A stretch of DNA of 64,000 nucleotides from a virus (taxonomy: Duplodnaviria > Caudoviricetes). Made by a program: the position numbers and the translations under genes. Of this stretch, positions 468-31,963 are shown one piece after another. The stretch covers positions 1 through 64,000 of the IMG/VR virus record IMGVR_UViG_3300002220_000062, one strand, 5' to 3'. Each line of letters starts with the position of its first letter. Position 1 is the first letter of the stretch. The notes under the pieces are model-generated. The model worked only from the letters and a program-made list of their open reading frames with translations, did no database searches and had not been told where the DNA came from.

Positions 468-1592
468 TTAAAGTACAATTTCTGAACCTATACCTCCACT
501 ATAACTATTTGGGTCTGATAAATAAGCTGGTGTTGTCCCATCACTATCAAATTTCATTCCTTTTAAAGCTCGCTCTAATTCATTAGAGGCTTTAGTTTTA
601 GTTTTACTTTCTAACAAAGAGAAATCTTTAAATCCTTTTGTTATTTCGTATAGGTAATAAAGTTTGGTATCAAAGTCAATAGGATTTTCTCTCCTATCTT
701 TCATTAGTTGGTTTTCCATAACTCCATTTGAGTTCTTTCCAACAATCTTTGTAATACTTTGATAAACTCTATCTTGTGTTGCTTTATTTACTTTCTGACC
801 TTTAATAAATTCATCAGTATTGTAAATTGCATTTTTTAAATCATTATCTATTTTTTCTTGTTCTGCAGCAACTCTTCGAGAATCTGCTTCTCTTTGAGTA
901 ACTAAAGCTTCCATTCTCTTCGCCTCAGTTAATTTAAGGCTTCCTAATGATTCTTTAGCATCTTCTATTACAGAATCATCACCAGCATCAATTGAACGTT
1001 TTAAAAGCCTCATAGCTCTATTCTCATCCATTCCTTGTGCTAAGTAATCTTGATAGATAATTTTTTTACTTAATTCTATATCTTCTTCAATGACACTATC
1101 AGTAATTCCATCTAGTGTTAAAATATTATCTTGATGTTGTTGATATTCTGCTAGACTTACACCTTTTTCTAGAGCCTCATATCCATCTTGTCCTATTTTA
1201 GAAACAATGAAATTTTTAGCTTGGTTATCAATTTCATCTTTAACAACTTTAGCTAAATCATCTTCTGATTTAATTTCATTCTTTTCGAGGTCCAGCGAGG
1301 GCAATAAGCCTTGGCGGCTTAGAACAGATGCAAAGGAAGAATAAGGGTTGGGAGAAGAATCATCTATTTCTTCATCGCCCTCTGGCTCCTCATCTCCAAC
1401 TACGTCCTCTGGATTCTCATCCTCGTTGGTGTTTATATTATCTACATCATCTTTTGATGTATTTACAGGTGGTTGTACATCTGTATTAATTTCATCTTCT
1501 AGATACTCTTCTGGTATACCATCAAAGTTAATCTCTAGGTTATCTTGCATGTCAAATAAAGACATTCCCAAGTCTTCTTGTGTTCCTTCCAT
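468..1592 (-). CDS. Conserved crAss-like structural/scaffolding-type protein
   Basis: 374 aa, very acidic N-terminus and a coiled-coil-like middle; lies between portal and capsid genes. Confidence 0.65.
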   Translation of the reverse strand: MEGTQEDLGMSLFDMQDNLEINFDGIPEEYLEDEINTDVQPPVNTSKDDVDNINTNEDENPEDVVGDEEPEGDEEIDDSSPNPYSSFASVLSRQGLLPSLDLEKNEIKSEDDLAKVVKDEIDNQAKNFIVSKIGQDGYEALEKGVSLAEYQQHQDNILTLDGITDSVIEEDIELSKKIIYQDYLAQGMDENRAMRLLKRSIDAGDDSVIEDAKESLGSLKLTEAKRMEALVTQREADSRRVAAEQEKIDNDLKNAIYNTDEFIKGQKVNKATQDRVYQSITKIVGKNSNGVMENQLMKDRRENPIDFDTKLYYLYEITKGFKDFSLLESKTKTKASNELERALKGMKFDSDGTTPAYLSDPNSYSGGIGSEIVL

Positions 1593-1615
1593 AATATTTC
1601 TCCCTTAATAATTTA

Positions 1616-1646
1616 CAAATATAATAAATTTTATGACAAAAGTCAA
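1616..1646 (-). promoter_or_regulatory. Bacteroidota-type promoter (TTGAC-N18-TATATTTG)
   Basis: TAnnTTTG -7 box just upstream of the 468..1592 gene; same spacing as six other copies in the window. Confidence 0.6.
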
Positions 1647-1689
1647 TACTTTTTTGTGAAAATATTGACTTTGCCCATTTTTATAATAG

Positions 1690-4101
1690 CTATTTCTTTA
1701 CTGTAGCTTTCTGTCTCATAGCAGAAATTTTCTTCATTTCTACTTCCATTTGGTCTTTATGTTTACTCATGTCATTAGATAGTTCTCTTGATTTATTAAA
1801 ATTATCCATTAACATTTTCTCTCTATCAAGTGATAATTTTTCTTTATCAATTGTATCATCTACGCCATTACTATCATCATCACCCTCTTCAGCTTTTAAT
1901 GAAGCTTGTAATTCAGCAACATAACGTCTAGTTTCATTATCTCTAATATTTCTAGCTTCTTCTGCAGCTATTAATGCTTGTTGTAAAGCTATAGAGTCTG
2001 CTTGTGCTTGTTGTGCAATCTTATTTTGTTGTTCTTGAGATTGTGAATTACGTTGATGCATATCATCCTCTGCAATCTCAATCTTACGCCTCATATCTGA
2101 TAAACTAGGGCTAAAGTATATATCCATAATAGTAGAGAAACTTCCACCATTTTGTAAGAAAGCTTGTGCATGACCTTTAAGTGCTTGTTCAAGTTCTGTA
2201 GCTTTAGATGAACTAGTTGCTACTAATCCATACTCTGCTTCATTAAACTCTTCCCCCTCCATATTAAGTACCTCAATTGTTTGGTCGTCTAATATGTATT
2301 GTACTTTCTTATTATTACCTTTTAGTGCTACCTTAGCTGCTTGTAAGAATGCAGATAAAACTCTTAGTTTTACTTTCTCATGCCCTGCAAACCAAAACTC
2401 AGTAATATGAGATGATTGATTTACAGACCGTTCTACACCAGATGCAGTTTCATTTTGATGAATAGCTCCCTCACGTTGTTTCGTAACACCAGCTATCTCA
2501 CCCATTTCATTCTTAATGAACTCTAGTAACTGTACATGTTGTTGAATGTATGTACCAGTTTCCATATCCATTACCTTACCACTTTGTTGCATAGAACCTG
2601 CTAGTTTCCCAGTAGATGCTCCATGATTACCTTCCTTGAATGAATCAACTACAGCAATCTTATTAACAACAGCAAAGTGTAACCATTTATCTATTTCCCA
2701 GTTTTCTGGTACCTTAGCTAAATCTAGTTCAAATATTTTACCATAGTTAGTTGAAATAGCTTTATTCAATCTATCCCAAATAACATCATACATATATTGG
2801 TAATTTTTACACCTATCAATCAATGATACGGCTTTACCTTGATTGGTGTTATATACTTGTCCAATAATTCCTGCATGTCCTGTAGATGGATTATTCAGTG
2901 AGTTGAATTGAATTTTTCTAGGTCGCATATTAACATATATGTCTTCACCTATCTTAGTTCCTTCCCACCATTCATTAACCCAATAGATAGTGGCTTCTTC
3001 CCCCATTTCTTCATCTACAACATACTCTTCAGACATTATTTTATATTCCTCTTCTCCTAGTTCACTGTAGTACTTAACTTTTTTAATTTTCTTAAGTGAC
3101 TTCCAATAAACACGTAGGACTCTAATATTTCCATTTTCATCCGTATAGTTTGAATTAAAGTAATGACCATTAATTTCTGCTAAGTTAAAGAAGGTATCCA
3201 TACCACCACCAGTAAAGTCCATACCACCATTTGGTAAGGCATCTCTTAATAGTGTGTGATTATTATGGTCATCTGAATAACTACTTTTTGATGTCTTAGT
3301 ACTATAATCATTTATATAGTCTATATCAGCAGGTTTTAATTCATTGTAGTAATAATCTATAATTTTCCCAGGACTCCAATGGTCTTCTAGGATAATTAAA
3401 TTTGAGTCTTCTATTCTATCTGAATTACCAGACCTAATTGAATATACTTTTAATGGATTAAGTTTGTCTAATTTAGGTTCATCAGATACTATATCTACTT
3501 GATATATCTCCTCAGCCATTAATAGTGCATCCTTAAATCCTTTATTAAATAACATATCAAACTCTTGTTCAGCCCAATAATGTCTAAGTATTTGATTGGC
3601 CATTTTCTCACGAATATCCTGCCAGTCATACTTCATATATTTTTCTAACTCTGCCATTTTAGTCTTAAGTTCTTCTTCCTCATAATTGGATTGAAGATAC
3701 TCAGTTAACCTACGCATAAGTTCTTGTTTCTTTCCTTCTTCTTTCTTACTTACAGCATCAGGATTGATTACTATAACCTTCCAGTCAAATCTTCGTTTTG
3801 TCTCTTCCCCTACTAATAAATCTATTTTAGGAACTACTATAGGGTGATGAGGTATATTATCAGGCACAAAATTTGCATCCATATTGTATGGATTTACAAC
3901 TGCAGATAAATCTCTTACATCCACAATTCCATTATACAAATTTAAATTGATAATTTTATTTCTAAGCGTCTGTCTAACACTCTCACTATGATAGAAAGAA
4001 TGTGTATCAGCATGGTCCATATTATCTTTACGCCATTCTACTGTCTTATTAATAAAAGACAGACGTTGTGGTGGAAGAGGTATATTATTTATTCTTGCCA
4101 T
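1690..4101 (-). CDS. Portal protein
   Basis: 803 aa directly downstream of TerL; crAss portal-like motifs (PKIDLLVGEE, WVNEWWEGTKIG, GVTKQREG) and a coiled-coil C-terminus. Confidence 0.88.
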   Translation of the reverse strand: MARINNIPLPPQRLSFINKTVEWRKDNMDHADTHSFYHSESVRQTLRNKIINLNLYNGIVDVRDLSAVVNPYNMDANFVPDNIPHHPIVVPKIDLLVGEETKRRFDWKVIVINPDAVSKKEEGKKQELMRRLTEYLQSNYEEEELKTKMAELEKYMKYDWQDIREKMANQILRHYWAEQEFDMLFNKGFKDALLMAEEIYQVDIVSDEPKLDKLNPLKVYSIRSGNSDRIEDSNLIILEDHWSPGKIIDYYYNELKPADIDYINDYSTKTSKSSYSDDHNNHTLLRDALPNGGMDFTGGGMDTFFNLAEINGHYFNSNYTDENGNIRVLRVYWKSLKKIKKVKYYSELGEEEYKIMSEEYVVDEEMGEEATIYWVNEWWEGTKIGEDIYVNMRPRKIQFNSLNNPSTGHAGIIGQVYNTNQGKAVSLIDRCKNYQYMYDVIWDRLNKAISTNYGKIFELDLAKVPENWEIDKWLHFAVVNKIAVVDSFKEGNHGASTGKLAGSMQQSGKVMDMETGTYIQQHVQLLEFIKNEMGEIAGVTKQREGAIHQNETASGVERSVNQSSHITEFWFAGHEKVKLRVLSAFLQAAKVALKGNNKKVQYILDDQTIEVLNMEGEEFNEAEYGLVATSSSKATELEQALKGHAQAFLQNGGSFSTIMDIYFSPSLSDMRRKIEIAEDDMHQRNSQSQEQQNKIAQQAQADSIALQQALIAAEEARNIRDNETRRYVAELQASLKAEEGDDDSNGVDDTIDKEKLSLDREKMLMDNFNKSRELSNDMSKHKDQMEVEMKKISAMRQKATVKK

Positions 4102-15927: not shown

Positions 15928-16020
15928 ATAATAAATAATAAGCTACAGTATAAAATTTTATGTAAGCACCGTAACTGATAACTCGGTATGCTATAAAATC
16001 TGTAGCTTTTATTATAATAA

Positions 16021-16070
16021 AACCTCTGATGAGTCTTTGAAATAAGACGAAACATATAATATGTCAGGTT
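16021..16070 (+). ncRNA. Type I hammerhead ribozyme
   Basis: Stem I AACCU/AGGUU, core CUGAUGA, stem II GUCUU/AAGAC, GAAA, stem III ACAUA/UAUGU, GUC cleavage triplet ending at 16065. Confidence 0.9.
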
Positions 16071-17873: not shown

Positions 17874-18238
17874 GGGGGTGCCTGGTTTTGACAAGGTATA
17901 TGAATTAATATTAATCAGCCAGAGAGATAACTGTAAACTAAGGTGATTTTATATAAATGGAAACATTAATAAACAAATCGTAGCTAATATGAACATAGTT
18001 CATAATATTTTAAAAGCAGAACAAGGTTCTGATATTGTAGAATTTAAATTAGCAATTGCAGCCTAAGCAATAAAAATAAAGGCAAGGAGTTTAGTAGTTC
18101 TTGTAAAAATTACTTGGTGGAAGACACTATTAAATTAGTTGTCCCTATCTAACTAAAGAGTTTAAACTATAGTAAAGCTGTAATAATTAATATTAAGGAA
18201 ATGTTTTGGACAGGGGTTCGAGTCCCCTCACCTCCACA
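17874..18238 (+). ncRNA. ssrA: tmRNA
   Basis: 5' GGGGGTG-CCTGGTTTTGAC pairs with 3' CACCTCC-A; T-arm AGGGG-TTCGAGT-CCCCT; internal tag frame 17959..18066 ends in LAIAA*. Confidence 0.92.
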
Positions 18239-18530
18239 TAAAGTAGTAGTTAGTGCAAATGTTTAGCACCTCATGTCAGTAGACGAAACAATTATATAAC
18301 TAATATCGAAAGATTTATAATTGGAGAAATGTAGATTAACAAACTACACTACTACTTAACATCAAAAATAACAAAGAAGAGGAAACGCGTGAGCTATTCT
18401 TCCATTACTCTGAAGGTATCTGTATTGAGCAGTACAATTGAATGAGGTCTCAACTAGTGGGTCAAGATATTCGGTACCTCTTCTTTTTATTATATTAGTA
18501 AATAAAGGTTTAACTAAACAAAATTTAACA

Positions 18531-28167: not shown

Positions 28168-28323
28168 ATGAGTTTATATACAAGAGTCTATGATGATATT
28201 GTAGATAGAAGAAAAAGGTTACTCAATGGGCAAATAAATTGCATCCCTTGGGGATTACCTAGATTTGAAAATGAATTACCTGGTATTGAACGAGGTAAGT
28301 ATTATTTAATAACAGCAAATAGT
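28168..28323 (+). CDS. DnaB-like replicative helicase, exon 1
   Basis: MSLYTRVY...NCIPWGLPRFENELPGIERGKYYLITANS; stops at the start of the Walker A loop. Confidence 0.85.
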
Positions 28324-28625
28324 TTTTAGTTTATAATAATTTAATTTGTAAACAAACAGAAGCTACGCTAGATGGTGACATCTAGATGATTATCCTTTGA
28401 ATTGCTGGAAACTCTTAACAAGTAATGTTGAAGACAATCAGCAGCCAAGCTTAGAAATAAGAAGGTTCAACGACTAGTGCAATAGAGCACGTACACTATA
28501 AGTTAATGATAGTGGAAGCGGAGGACATCTCTATGAGATGAAGATATAGTCTAGTCTATATGGAAACATATAGCAGTTCATAAGAGAACGTATATAAGAG
28601 TTACGTCTTATATAGAATATAAACG
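28324..28625 (+). mobile_element. Group I intron 1 (ORF-less, IA2-like, 302 nt)
   Basis: 5' exon ends in U; P1 UAGU/GCUA; P AAUUGCUGGAAA; Q AAUCAGCAGCC; R GUUCAACGACUA; P7.1 and P7.2 hairpins; S AAGAUAUAGUC; P9 CUAUAUG-GAAA-CAUAUAG; terminal G at 28625. Confidence 0.92.
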
Positions 28626-28634
28626 AAAGTGGGT
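28626..28634 (+). CDS. DnaB-like helicase, 9-nt micro-exon 2 (Lys-Val-Gly)
   Basis: AAAGTGGGT lies between the terminal G of intron 1 and P1 of intron 2 (GGGU/GCCC); it restores Walker A ANSKVGKT. Confidence 0.82.
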
Positions 28635-28708
28635 AGAATTTGCCCCTCTGGTTAGTAATAATTAGAGCAAACTCAGAATCCTAGAAATAGGGGTTAATTA
28701 ATAATTAA

Positions 28709-29266
28709 ATGGAAATAATAAAAGCAGGTCAAAAACCAAAAATGGGAGATTTTGTATATGTTGTACAAGATTATACTAGTTTTACATATAAAGATGCTAA
28801 TGGTAATTGTAAACATTGTTATCTTGATAATATGTCTTCACTTTGTTACACCTTAAAAGATGCCGATGAAAAGAAACAAGCAGAAATACTTGAATTATTT
28901 AAAAGTATTTTTGATGTTAATTCAAAAGTTACCTTTGGTGTAAATCTAACAAGAATGGAGTATATTGAGACTCTTAAAAAACATTTTACTTTAATATCTT
29001 GTGTAGAAGTTCCAACAGGATATGGAACACGTCAGAAACAATATCATGCTATATTTTTTACAAATTCTATGGCTAGAGATTATGGTGGTACTTATAGAGG
29101 TAGATTAAATAAAGAAGGTGTAATTGTAAGCACTATGAAACATAGGAAAACTATAAATCCTGGTGATAAAATTGACACTGTAATTAATGAAAGTGATATT
29201 GAAAAGATAATGTCTTATAAGAGTAAATATCATCTACAAAAATTTCTTAGAACAAAAATTAATTAG
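28709..29266 (+). CDS. Intron-borne hypothetical protein A
   Basis: 185 aa, enclosed by helix GGUUAAUUA (28692) / UAAUUAGCU (29260); no nuclease motif seen. Confidence 0.6.
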   Translation: MEIIKAGQKPKMGDFVYVVQDYTSFTYKDANGNCKHCYLDNMSSLCYTLKDADEKKQAEILELFKSIFDVNSKVTFGVNLTRMEYIETLKKHFTLISCVEVPTGYGTRQKQYHAIFFTNSMARDYGGTYRGRLNKEGVIVSTMKHRKTINPGDKIDTVINESDIEKIMSYKSKYHLQKFLRTKIN

Positions 29267-29300
29267 CTAACGGGGAAACCCTTTATAAAAATAAGTAAAA

Positions 29301-29600
29301 ATGAAAAAAACTACAACAGCGTGTTGTGCGTTATGTCAAATTAATAATGTAAATAATGATACAACTATTGAAGAGTTAGAATATGCAATTGACATATTAA
29401 CTAATCAGAAAGAGAAAAATACAGAAGTAGGTATTACAACAGGTAATGGACAAACTTCAGTATTTGTTATAGTTTCTCCTGGAGAATATGTACTAAGTAG
29501 AAATCTAAAAAAATTAGGATTTGAACTTAAACACACATTTGAAAGAAGAAAAGGATATCCACCTGTTGGAGAATTAGAGATGTATATTAAAAATCTTTAA
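29301..29600 (+). CDS. Intron-borne hypothetical protein B
   Basis: 99 aa in the P5 extension; CCALC motif. Confidence 0.6.
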   Translation: MKKTTTACCALCQINNVNNDTTIEELEYAIDILTNQKEKNTEVGITTGNGQTSVFVIVSPGEYVLSRNLKKLGFELKHTFERRKGYPPVGELEMYIKNL

Positions 29601-29602
29601 TT

Positions 29603-30166
29603 ATGTGGGAGACTTATGAATGGGGAAGGTCAAGATATGACATTCTCTATAAAGATGGTAGTACAGAAAAGATAAAGAGTGCATGTTTTGCAGCACTTAC
29701 TCGTACTACTAATAGCACAATTAAGCGTATAAAATTATATGATTTTAAATGTAAACCAACTATAGAATATCGTAAATGGTATTTAGAATATGTTAGTGAT
29801 ATGTTACAACTAGAAGAGGTAGAAATTACTGAAGACTATATAGCATTTGACGCATATGATAATAAAAACAAAAATATGTTAGTATTATCATTATTTAGAT
29901 TTTTATATGAACAACTTGGTTATGTTACACCTATAATTCAAACACATGAGGTATTTTTAGAACCTTTAAGAAATGGAGAATGTGAATATATAGATAAATT
30001 AGAAAGATTTTGTTACTTCTATAGTAAAATAGAAACAAAAAAAGCTTATTATTCTACTATACATTCTTGGTATCCTAAAACTACTGTTATTAAATCAACA
30101 GAAGATTTCTTAAAGATTAAAAAACTACCATCTGTTAATTCATTTTTTACTTATGAAAAAAACTAA
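29603..30166 (+). CDS. Intron-borne hypothetical protein C
   Basis: 187 aa in the P5 extension; its stop codon is part of the P5 3' strand UAAAG. Confidence 0.6.
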   Translation: MWETYEWGRSRYDILYKDGSTEKIKSACFAALTRTTNSTIKRIKLYDFKCKPTIEYRKWYLEYVSDMLQLEEVEITEDYIAFDAYDNKNKNMLVLSLFRFLYEQLGYVTPIIQTHEVFLEPLRNGECEYIDKLERFCYFYSKIETKKAYYSTIHSWYPKTTVIKSTEDFLKIKKLPSVNSFFTYEKN

Positions 30167-30431
30167 AGACAATCCCGTGCCGTCACTTGATTTTAATATA
30201 ATAAAAACTAATACATTTAAAGAAGATGATGAAATATGTCATATAAGAAATTTTATGGTAGGTTTACCTTACTTTTTTAAAGCAACTGATTATGATGTAA
30301 AACATTATTCAGGAAAAAATGGTATTTATTTGTTAAAACAATACGGTGTAGAGACTAACAATGAGAAACCTAAATCAGGACACATGACAGAAATATCATG
30401 GGGTAGTAAAAAACATCCTGATGAAGATTAG
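30153..30431 (+). CDS. ORF overlapping the intron catalytic core (may not be coding)
   Basis: 92 aa reading through Q, P6, R and P8; DNPVPS and GVETN are translations of Q and R. Confidence 0.3.
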   Translation: MKKTKDNPVPSLDFNIIKTNTFKEDDEICHIRNFMVGLPYFFKATDYDVKHYSGKNGIYLLKQYGVETNNEKPKSGHMTEISWGSKKHPDED

Positions 30432-30518
30432 GTTTATGAGATAGTCCGAACTATATGGTGACATATAGAGCCAAACAGAAATGATTTGGCTGTGAAAATT
30501 AAACAAAAATTAATAAAA

Positions 30519-31019
30519 ATGAAATTATATTTAAAAGATTATAAAAAAAAATCAACTACATGTGTAAAAAGTTTTTTATTAGATTATTATAAGAATGTTT
30601 TCAGTTTAGAAGGAACACCTGCTACATACTTTAGTCCTATATGTGACGAAAAAGATTTGCAATGTTCTGCTAGAAAATCACGTTCATTTACAGATATGTA
30701 TTATTTAACTAAAACTTATTTTCCAACATTAACAGAAAAAACTTTTACTAAGAAATTAGTAGAAGTAATGAAAGTGCATAAGTTAAAATTCTTATTTTGT
30801 AATGGTGCAAAAAAAACAGTAATACATGCCAGTTTTGGTACTAATAATCAAAGAACAAGTAACTTTTTTAAGTCATTAGTATTTGATTATTGTGGTTTAT
30901 TAAAGACTCAATATAATCTAAAAGGTAATGGAGAGCATTCTATAATAGATGTAATAGAATTTTCTGGTTATAAAAATGATGTAATTGAAAAAGAACTTAA
31001 CCGTTTAAGGAACACATAA
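30519..31019 (+). CDS. Intron-borne hypothetical protein E
   Basis: ATG at 30519 after P9.1; ends 8 nt before the 3' splice site. Confidence 0.6.
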   Translation: MKLYLKDYKKKSTTCVKSFLLDYYKNVFSLEGTPATYFSPICDEKDLQCSARKSRSFTDMYYLTKTYFPTLTEKTFTKKLVEVMKVHKLKFLFCNGAKKTVIHASFGTNNQRTSNFFKSLVFDYCGLLKTQYNLKGNGEHSIIDVIEFSGYKNDVIEKELNRLRNT

Positions 31020-31027
31020 CAAAATTG

Positions 31028-31963
31028 AAAACTCAAATAGCCGATTGGTTATTTTTGTACAATACTATTCAACAAGTTATTGAAAAATCTCTAAATATCA
31101 AATTAAAGATATTTTATTTTAGTTTAGAAATGTCTAAGGAAGAAAAGATGCTAGCAGCTTTCTCTAATATTATATATATTAAAGAAGGTATAAGAATAGC
31201 TCCAAAGGACCTTAGAAGTACTAAATCAGATAAAATATTAAGTGAAGAGACTTTAGAGTTAATATCAAAATATAAACCATATTTCGACAAAATTGAAGAA
31301 ATAGTTGAATTTATAGATGATATTAGAAATCCCACAGGTATTTATAAATTTGTTAGAAGTTACGCTATTGCAAATGGTGTACAACATAAGAAAACTATAA
31401 ATATTAAGGGTACATTAACAGAAATCGATGATTACTATGAACCAAACGACCCTGAAGAGTACGTTATGGTTTTTATTGACCATATAAGTTTGATTTCTAC
31501 CGAGGAAGAAGGAGGACAAAAGATGAATTTGCATCAATCTATTGTCAAGCTTTCTTCAGATTACCTTATTAGATTACGAAATAAATATAAATACATTCCA
31601 GTTGTTATTCAACAACAAGCATCTGCTCAAGAATCCGTAGAGAATATGAAAGTCGGAAGACTTAAACCTTCAATGGATGGATTAGGAGACTGTAAGCTTA
31701 CCCAAAGGGATGCAAATGTTATATTGGGACTATTTAGTCCTTTTCGTCATGAATTAAGAGAATACCAAGGATATGATATTACCTTTTTTAAGGATAATAT
31801 TAGATTTCTAGAAGTATTAGGTGGAAGAGAAGGTGGTGGTGGTACAGTATGTCCACTGTTCTTTGATGGAGCAGTGAATTATTTTAAAGAGTTACCAAAA
31901 CCAATGGACCAAGAAGGGCTTAGAAGCGTTTATAGTTACATTGAGAAAACAATTAAAAAATAA
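31028..31963 (+). CDS. DnaB-like replicative helicase, exon 3
   Basis: Begins KTQIADW (end of Walker A); YFSLEMS, VFIDHI (Walker B), VIQQQA and QRDANVILGLFSP motifs. Spliced product is 366 aa. Confidence 0.9.
   Translation, partial: KTQIADWLFLYNTIQQVIEKSLNIKLKIFYFSLEMSKEEKMLAAFSNIIYIKEGIRIAPKDLRSTKSDKILSEETLELISKYKPYFDKIEEIVEFIDDIRNPTGIYKFVRSYAIANGVQHKKTINIKGTLTEIDDYYEPNDPEEYVMVFIDHISLISTEEEGGQKMNLHQSIVKLSSDYLIRLRNKYKYIPVVIQQQASAQESVENMKVGRLKPSMDGLGDCKLTQRDANVILGLFSPFRHELREYQGYDITFFKDNIRFLEVLGGREGGGGTVCPLFFDGAVNYFKELPKPMDQEGLRSVYSYIEKTIKK

Follow-up and report, generated by a model that had tools for sequence, protein, structure and literature searches.

Two predicted group I introns around a nine-nucleotide exon in the Walker A codons of a crAss-like phage helicase gene

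The IMG/VR virus record IMGVR_UViG_3300002220_000062 (Duplodnaviria; Caudoviricetes) is 91,453 bp long and about 91% complete, and the window analyzed here is its first 64 kb (positions 1 to 64,000). On the plus strand of the window lies a DnaB-like helicase gene in three exons, the second of which is only 9 nucleotides (nt) long and encodes Lys-Val-Gly (K-V-G) of the Walker A loop, or P-loop. Predicted group I introns of 302 nt (intron 1) and 2393 nt (intron 2) flank this exon. The gene is the sole DnaB-like helicase gene of the phage, its Walker A codons are its most conserved stretch, and the encoded helicase is closest to those of marine crAss-like phages, e.g., Cellulophaga phage phi14:2 (Crassvirales, Steigviridae). 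An earlier reading of this DNA, referred to below as the original prediction, had exon 1 ending at U28323, intron 1 at G28625 and intron 2 at G31027, with K-V-G between the introns and KTQIADW opening exon 3, and every one of these borders proved correct. The population set used for comparison consists of 55 related IMG/VR loci holding both long exons; individual loci are cited by L numbers.

The reading frame of exon 1 runs through ...YYLITANS to U28323 and, if unspliced, continues with F and a stop codon. At the other end of the gene, an open reading frame (ORF) of 312 codons (31025-31963) has a TTG start followed by KTQIADW. This C-terminal ORF of 312 amino acids (aa) is all that gene callers give for the helicase, which bears out the earlier remark that the ORF track holds a truncated protein. 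Exon 3 alone matches the DnaB-like helicase family PHROG 19 (E = 1e-6) and has 3120 protein homologues; a Pfam search with it returned no family, and full-length relatives carry PF03796. Joining the three exons gives 1101 nt, that is, 366 aa and a stop codon. The joined product is 68-75% identical to seven intron-less relatives (367-373 aa), collinear with them from end to end and free of gaps at the joints, where those relatives read ...ITANSKVGKTQIADW... (ANS-KVG-KTQ). The original prediction depended on homologous helicases carrying such a loop at this point, and the intron-less ones do. Among the 120 closest protein clusters, 26 are full length (367-376 aa) and read ...GKYYLITANS-KVG-KTQIADW..., while 72 start exactly one codon ahead of KTQ. 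In the alignment of protein P0078, ANSKVGKT falls on ARPSMGKT of Helicobacter pylori DnaB, with K-V-G-K-T on the Walker A residues S-M-G-K-T, and the joined helicase shows the pattern A-x-x-x-x-G-K-T expected of a Walker A motif (A/GxxxxGK[ST]). The P-loop proposed for a 366-aa DnaB-like helicase is thereby upheld. Gene anatomy and homology also support the proposal that two tandem group I introns lie here and that the 366-aa product would need both splicing events. Two other ways of bridging the interruptions were rejected: an intein by the stop codons after exon 1 and after exon 2, and ribosomal bypassing by the gap lengths of 302 and 2393 nt.

The 2704-nt insert holds a single 9-mer coding for K-V-G, namely the exon itself, whereas about 0.25 would be expected by chance in a stretch of this size (from 11.9 expected per 128 kb). 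With the flanking G and A included, the window holds one copy of the 9-mer, where 0.19 would be expected. The next bases form the 5' end of the intron that, in relatives with a single intron, directly follows these codons. Given the intron-less sequence, the borders of intron 1 are unique; those of intron 2 could shift by one A, and the rule of a U before the intron and a terminal G selects 28635-31027. Both introns flank the 9-nt exon in nine other loci. Five of these ten genomes have AAAGTGGGT as the exon, three have GTA or GTT as the Val codon, and the other two have ATT (Ile) in its place; because variation is limited to the Val wobble base or a change from Val to Ile, it is constrained as coding sequence. 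The arrangement of two predicted introns around a 9-nt exon is confirmed as real and as recurring in related phages.

In a short-range scan, intron 1 matches the Rfam model Intron_gpI with 99.5 bits (gathering threshold, 50) over 28325-28573, covering model positions 1-253. A covariance-model scan (cmscan) of the whole window drops this match under gathering and E-value thresholds alike (speed filters), and AT-rich phage group I introns can escape detection unless short stretches are scanned. The minimum free energy fold of intron 1 has z = -4.0, and P1, P3, P4-P6, P8 and P9 are present. At its 5' splice site, U28323 pairs with G28362 within an 8-bp P1 in the fold, and exon UAGU pairs with the guide GCUA; in relatives, this guide is conserved and the intron-side extension of P1 covaries. 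Homologues at the same site, 0.5-1.2 kb long, occur in L001, L002, L011/L015, L027/L045, L029, L031 and L036. The ribozyme cores of L001, L011/L015, L027 and L029 are 72-93% identical to intron 1, and L002, L031 and L036 join the family via those members and the core alignment; all nine members of the family end in G. Six relatives carry an ORF with GIY-YIG and NUMOD1 domains in the P1 loop, where the window copy has a small hairpin. A search for a P10 joining intron 1 to the 9-nt exon found none, and relatives show no conservation of the bases on the 5' side of the guide.

Intron 2 has a core split by ORFs. Alignment with 14 relatives gave five conserved blocks in a fixed order, separated by spacers of a few nt to 1.5 kb, and these blocks form the helices P1-P9.1. 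Across these relatives, 91.8% of the alignment cells are paired and both sides have changed in 19 of 55 pairs, as compared with 34-47% paired and 1-9 such pairs in slid controls. Compensatory changes include P4, P6, P7 (A-U to G-C in four genomes), P8, P9 and P9.1, and P3 covaries through four sets of pairs, in keeping with the P3/P7 pseudoknot. The U28634.G28642 pair at the 5' splice site, within a helix of exon GGGU and guide GCCC, is invariant in the 14 relatives, and all copies of the intron end in G. Hence, the U-G pair in each P1 and the final G of each intron are as originally predicted. A putative P10 would pair the first three bases of exon 3 with a U-run just 5' of the guide; this helix and the two P3-P4 hairpins come from reading the sequence alone and lie outside the covariation test. 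A pairing between the two ends of intron 2 was also considered and dropped, as it is not kept in L034. P7.1 and P7.2 are absent, and introns of Bacillus, Staphylococcus and Aeromonas phages share 84-88% identity with the J8/7-P7-P9 region over about 40 nt. The P4/P6 and P9 sequences may also resemble those of T4 td. A phage-type subgroup IA intron is the best explanation of this predicted structure.

Rfam results in the relatives are uneven. In L029, both flanking introns score above threshold (88.5 and 68.8 bits), the 68.8-bit match belonging to a different intron lineage at the intron 2 site. L034 has partial 3' matches only (30.9 bits), and L001, L002, L031 and L036 have no match at E <= 0.001. 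The features of the locus are collected in Table 1, together with two elements elsewhere in the window.

Table 1. Coordinates of the helicase locus, its predicted introns and other elements. Positions are those of the window, except for phi14:2, where they are those of the locus.
Feature	Positions	Strand	Description and basis
Helicase exon 1	28168..28323	+	52 codons, end ...ITANS; ORF list; tblastn match in 55 related loci; aligns with intron-less N-termini
Intron 1	28324..28625	+	ORF-less group I, IA2-like, 302 nt; Rfam RF00028 99.5 bits; terminal G28625
Exon 2 (9 nt)	28626..28634	+	Lys-Val-Gly of Walker A loop; last 4 nt form exon side of intron 2 P1
Intron 2	28635..31027	+	group I, 2393 nt, core split by ORFs; covariation, conserved blocks, partial Rfam match; terminal G31027
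Helicase exon 3	31028..31963	+	311 codons and stop, starts KTQIADW; ORF list; PHROG 19 match
Intron 1 P1	28320-27/28358-65		
Intron 1 P1-loop hairpin	28329-53		
Intron 1 P2	28368-85		
Intron 1 P3	28393-99/28519-25		
Intron 1 P4	28402-08/28438-44		
Intron 1 P6	28445-65		
Intron 1 P7	28472-76/28547-51		
Intron 1 P7.1	28477-90		
Intron 1 P7.2	28494-514		
Intron 1 P8	28527-39		
Intron 1 P9	28556-73		
Intron 2 P1	28631-34/28642-45		
Intron 2 P10	28639-41/31028-30		putative
Intron 2 P2	28646-54/28659-67		
Intron 2 P3	28672-75/30362-65		
Intron 2 GAAA-loop hairpin	28680-91		between P3 and P4
Intron 2 second hairpin	28694-701/29259-66		between P3 and P4
Intron 2 P4	29270-75/30173-78		
Intron 2 P5	29280-84/30165-69		
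Intron 2 P6	30179-83/30343-47		
Intron 2 P7	30353-57/30442-46		
Intron 2 P8	30367-73/30428-34		
Intron 2 P9	30451-56/30463-68		
Intron 2 P9.1	30469-75/30485-91		
ORF a	28709..29266	+	185 aa; loop of second P3-P4 hairpin; 6 family members in relatives
ORFs b and c	29301..30166	+	b 29301-29600, 99 aa; c 29603-30166, 187 aa; P5 loop; families of 10 and 14, variably present
ORF d	30153..30431	+	92 aa; reads through P5', P4', P6, P7, P3', P8
ORF e	30519..31019	+	166 aa with ATG start (177 aa with TTG start at 30486); 3' tail after P9.1; most widespread intron-2 ORF family, 18 members in relatives
phi14:2 locus L067	NC_021806.1 12288-20640		exon 1 701-853; K-V-G 854-862; intron 863-3478; exon 3 from 3479
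tmRNA (transfer-messenger RNA) gene	17874-18239	+	full length; Rfam RF00023, 83.2 bits
Hammerhead type III ribozyme match	15997-16058	+	sub-threshold; 38.5 bits (gathering 48.5), E = 9e-5

Much of the length of intron 2 is taken up by its five ORFs (a to e). ORF a is missing from L006, L034 and L060, where its hairpin is closed. ORF d is kept as an ORF in relatives, where it is fused with ORF c in several cases, and an ORF of L034 (4948-5337) crosses the same core; translation of ORF d and folding of the ribozyme would compete. The AlphaFold model of ORF e has a predicted local distance difference test score (pLDDT) of 79.5; a profile search against PDB sequences returned nothing, Foldseek gave nothing at E <= 0.001, and fold comparison with VIA-align found weak winged-helix-like matches with Z up to 5. 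None of the five has a nuclease match in Pfam or PHROG or a firm family match. Taking the window together with relatives (L001-L010, L031, L034, L060), intron 2 holds at least 10 ORF families at at least five positions, with insertion points after P2, in the P3-P4 hairpin, in the P5, P8 and P9 loops and in the 3' tail. These families, most of them without a known domain, are present or absent independently of one another among relatives, and a LAGLIDADG ORF occupies the P8 loop in L001 and L006. In this, intron 2 behaves as a modular carrier of ORFs.

The distribution of the two introns was followed through the population set. Of the 55 loci, 30 are intron-less and 16 have intron 2 only; in the remaining 9, the 9-nt exon is flanked by both introns. 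Counting the window, intron 1 is found only together with intron 2 (10 of 26 intron-2 alleles versus none of 30 intron-less ones). On the exon 3 tree, intron 1 underwent at least seven changes of state and intron 2 at least six, of which four and three, respectively, are forced by well-supported branches; sister genomes (L002/L004 and L036/L042) differ in intron 1, and the tandem state is found in at least five lineages. Such repeated gains or losses of both introns on the host tree fit two mobile introns homing to adjacent sites. In L025 (4293-6000), counted among the 16 loci with intron 2 only, an intron of the intron 2 type is inserted 4 nt upstream of the usual intron 2 site, following the second base of the Val codon, giving three insertion points within 9 nt across the relatives. 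The protein P0086, which starts ...RG-KTQ, suggests a similar variant.

A homologue of intron 2 is also present in a cultured phage. Cellulophaga phage phi14:2 has an unannotated insert of 2616 nt with the same core blocks, in which a search with Rfam found no match. In its RefSeq annotation, g024 is exon 1 plus read-through, g025-g028 are the intron ORFs (four hypothetical genes), and g029 is an N-terminally truncated DnaB.

Taken together, it is very probable that the locus holds two independent, originally mobile group I introns, which sit at neighboring homing sites, separated by 9 nt within the Walker A codons, and each splice themselves out. This explanation is carried by anatomy, homology, covariation and distribution in the population, and from these we infer self-splicing, the order of events and the mechanism of mobility. 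The helicase gene would be transcribed as one pre-mRNA across both introns, inside which no terminator-like site was found on the plus strand. Each ribozyme would then find its own 5' splice site via its short P1 (UAGU/GCUA in intron 1, GGGU/GCCC in intron 2). The 9 nt would suffice for both introns because intron 2 draws only on the final 4 nt for its P1 and no P10 links intron 1 to exon 2; either order of splicing should therefore work and would yield exon 1-exon 2-exon 3 and a normal 366-aa helicase. Intron 1 would stem from a GIY-YIG intron family and be a decayed copy lacking the endonuclease, intron 2 would have gathered ORFs in several peripheral loops, and both would be selfish introns that homed to a motif conserved at the nucleotide level.

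Several points weigh against this explanation. A search with group I covariance models, proposed along with the original prediction, recovers intron 1; it fails for intron 2, which matches RF00028 with only 29.3 bits (E = 7.6e-5) in its 3' part (30318-30468), below the gathering threshold, because ORFs sit in its loops and inserts of 0.55 and 0.87 kb interrupt the core. For this intron, it is covariation that backs the core. The two hairpins between P3 and P4 in the intron 2 model are unusual, and both P1 helices have just four exon base pairs. The five ORFs, one of them running through the catalytic core, could disturb folding if translated. Finally, searches of Pfam, PHROG and folds revealed no recognizable endonuclease in either intron of this genome, and present-day mobility here is therefore unsupported.

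A different history of intron 1, which we consider possible but unlikely, is that the target of its GIY-YIG endonuclease lineage includes the 5' end of intron 2 and that intron 1 can therefore invade only alleles in which intron 2 is already present. The association of intron 1 with intron 2 given above is what this predicts, no intron-1-only allele is apparent among the 120 closest protein clusters, and the at least 4-7 changes of intron 1 state always took place on an intron-2 background. Relatedness, however, confounds the count, since homing requires closely related phages to co-infect, and these have intron 2 in common; repeated loss from a two-intron ancestor fits equally well.

It was also proposed in the original prediction that skipping of the micro-exon could act as a regulatory switch. 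The structural half of this proposal stands, as joining exon 1 to exon 3 stays in frame and would give a 363-aa product without the P-loop glycine; nothing points to regulation. For the phage to tune helicase activity by inclusion versus skipping of the 9-nt exon, with a 363-aa product that could poison the hexamer, seems very improbable to us. Reverse transcription-polymerase chain reaction (RT-PCR) has revealed such skipping at the tandem group I introns of Twort orf142 and Coxiella 23S ribosomal RNA (rRNA), according to the summary in PMC10136302, and the tandem state here persists in several lineages. But the two guides differ, and at the end of exon 1 GCCC would pair with just two of the final 4 nt. 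Nor do the P3 strands of one intron complement those of the other, and similarity between the introns is confined to a 31-nt J8/7-P7-P9 motif. These differences and the shortness of the similarity disfavour a composite ribozyme or use of the distal site. Moreover, sister genomes differ in intron 1, most relatives have one intron or none, and intron 1 was gained or lost several times on the host tree, as for a selfish insertion and not a fixed control device. The tandem arrangement looks incidental. We give slightly less credence still to a fraction of transcripts being spliced from exon 1 to exon 3 so that a subunit lacking the P-loop poisons or times the replicative hexamer; if true, such skipping would turn tandem self-splicing introns into a regulator of phage replication at the RNA level.

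That the gene is a decaying pseudogene or split gene, in which the insert stays in and the 9-mer is a chance match, is hardly credible: the truncated gene call and the low Rfam score of intron 2 would agree with it, but all alleles with an interruption keep exons 1 and 3 highly conserved; the 9-mer falls exactly after a terminal G and directly before the conserved 5' end of intron 2, varying almost only at the wobble base in ten genomes; chance matches are scarce in the insert; the core helices of intron 2 covary; and a C-terminal fragment that lacks the context of the Walker A glycine and lysine would be no functional helicase.

With two self-splicing introns at adjacent sites as the preferred explanation, the locus bears on the minimal exon that two such group I introns can share, and the Walker A codons of a phage helicase emerge as a multi-site homing hotspot. 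This explanation would also account for the N-terminally truncated helicase ORFs that lie beside "hypothetical proteins" in most of an abundant marine crAss-like clade, phi14:2 included, and would allow better annotation. The phage phi14:2 offers a tractable system, in which published RNA-seq (GSE133609) could test the splicing of a 2.6-kb multi-ORF intron.

Several known systems come close to this arrangement. In Twort orf142, the introns I2 and I3 are highly similar, enclose a 23-nt exon and have been proposed to form a composite ribozyme, according to PMC10136302. There, as here, two phage introns of the IA2 type flank a very short exon in a protein gene, and introns of Twort-like Staphylococcus phages share 76-78% identity with intron 1 over about 200 nt. 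The present case differs from what that text describes in that the exon has 9 nt rather than 23, the host is a crAss-like phage of Bacteroidota, and the introns are dissimilar, with different guides and P3 strands, and so are not the two highly similar introns of a Twort-type composite ribozyme. The 23S rRNA gene of Coxiella burnetii, in the same text, has tandem group I introns around a 34-nt exon; as at our locus, the two group I introns are unrelated and adjacent, separated by a short exon. Unlike that longer exon in an rRNA gene of a bacterial chromosome, the 9 nt here are three codons of a catalytic motif.

Intron 2 is like T4 td and other phage subgroup IA introns in its J8/7-P7-P9 region. 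Unlike td-type introns, it lacks P7.1/P7.2, has two extra P3-P4 hairpins, carries ORFs at four places instead of one, and has no recognizable homing endonuclease. In crAss-like phages, group I introns have been reported from the gut Delta and Zeta groups, in the genes for MCP, PolB, primase as well as ATP_43b (Yutin et al. 2021, PMC7886860). Those introns likewise lie in core replication or structural genes, whereas the site here is a helicase P-loop in a marine Steigviridae-like phage; our literature search found no report of this site, of a 9-nt exon or of marine Steigviridae-like phages with such introns, and no phage exon this small. An even smaller exon, of 1 bp, is known from placozoan cox1 (PMC5436844), where a very small exon between organelle-type introns is spliced correctly, albeit in eukaryotic mitochondria and with different intron partners. 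Against this background, the arrangement takes to an extreme something that phages are known to do and involves no new mechanism.

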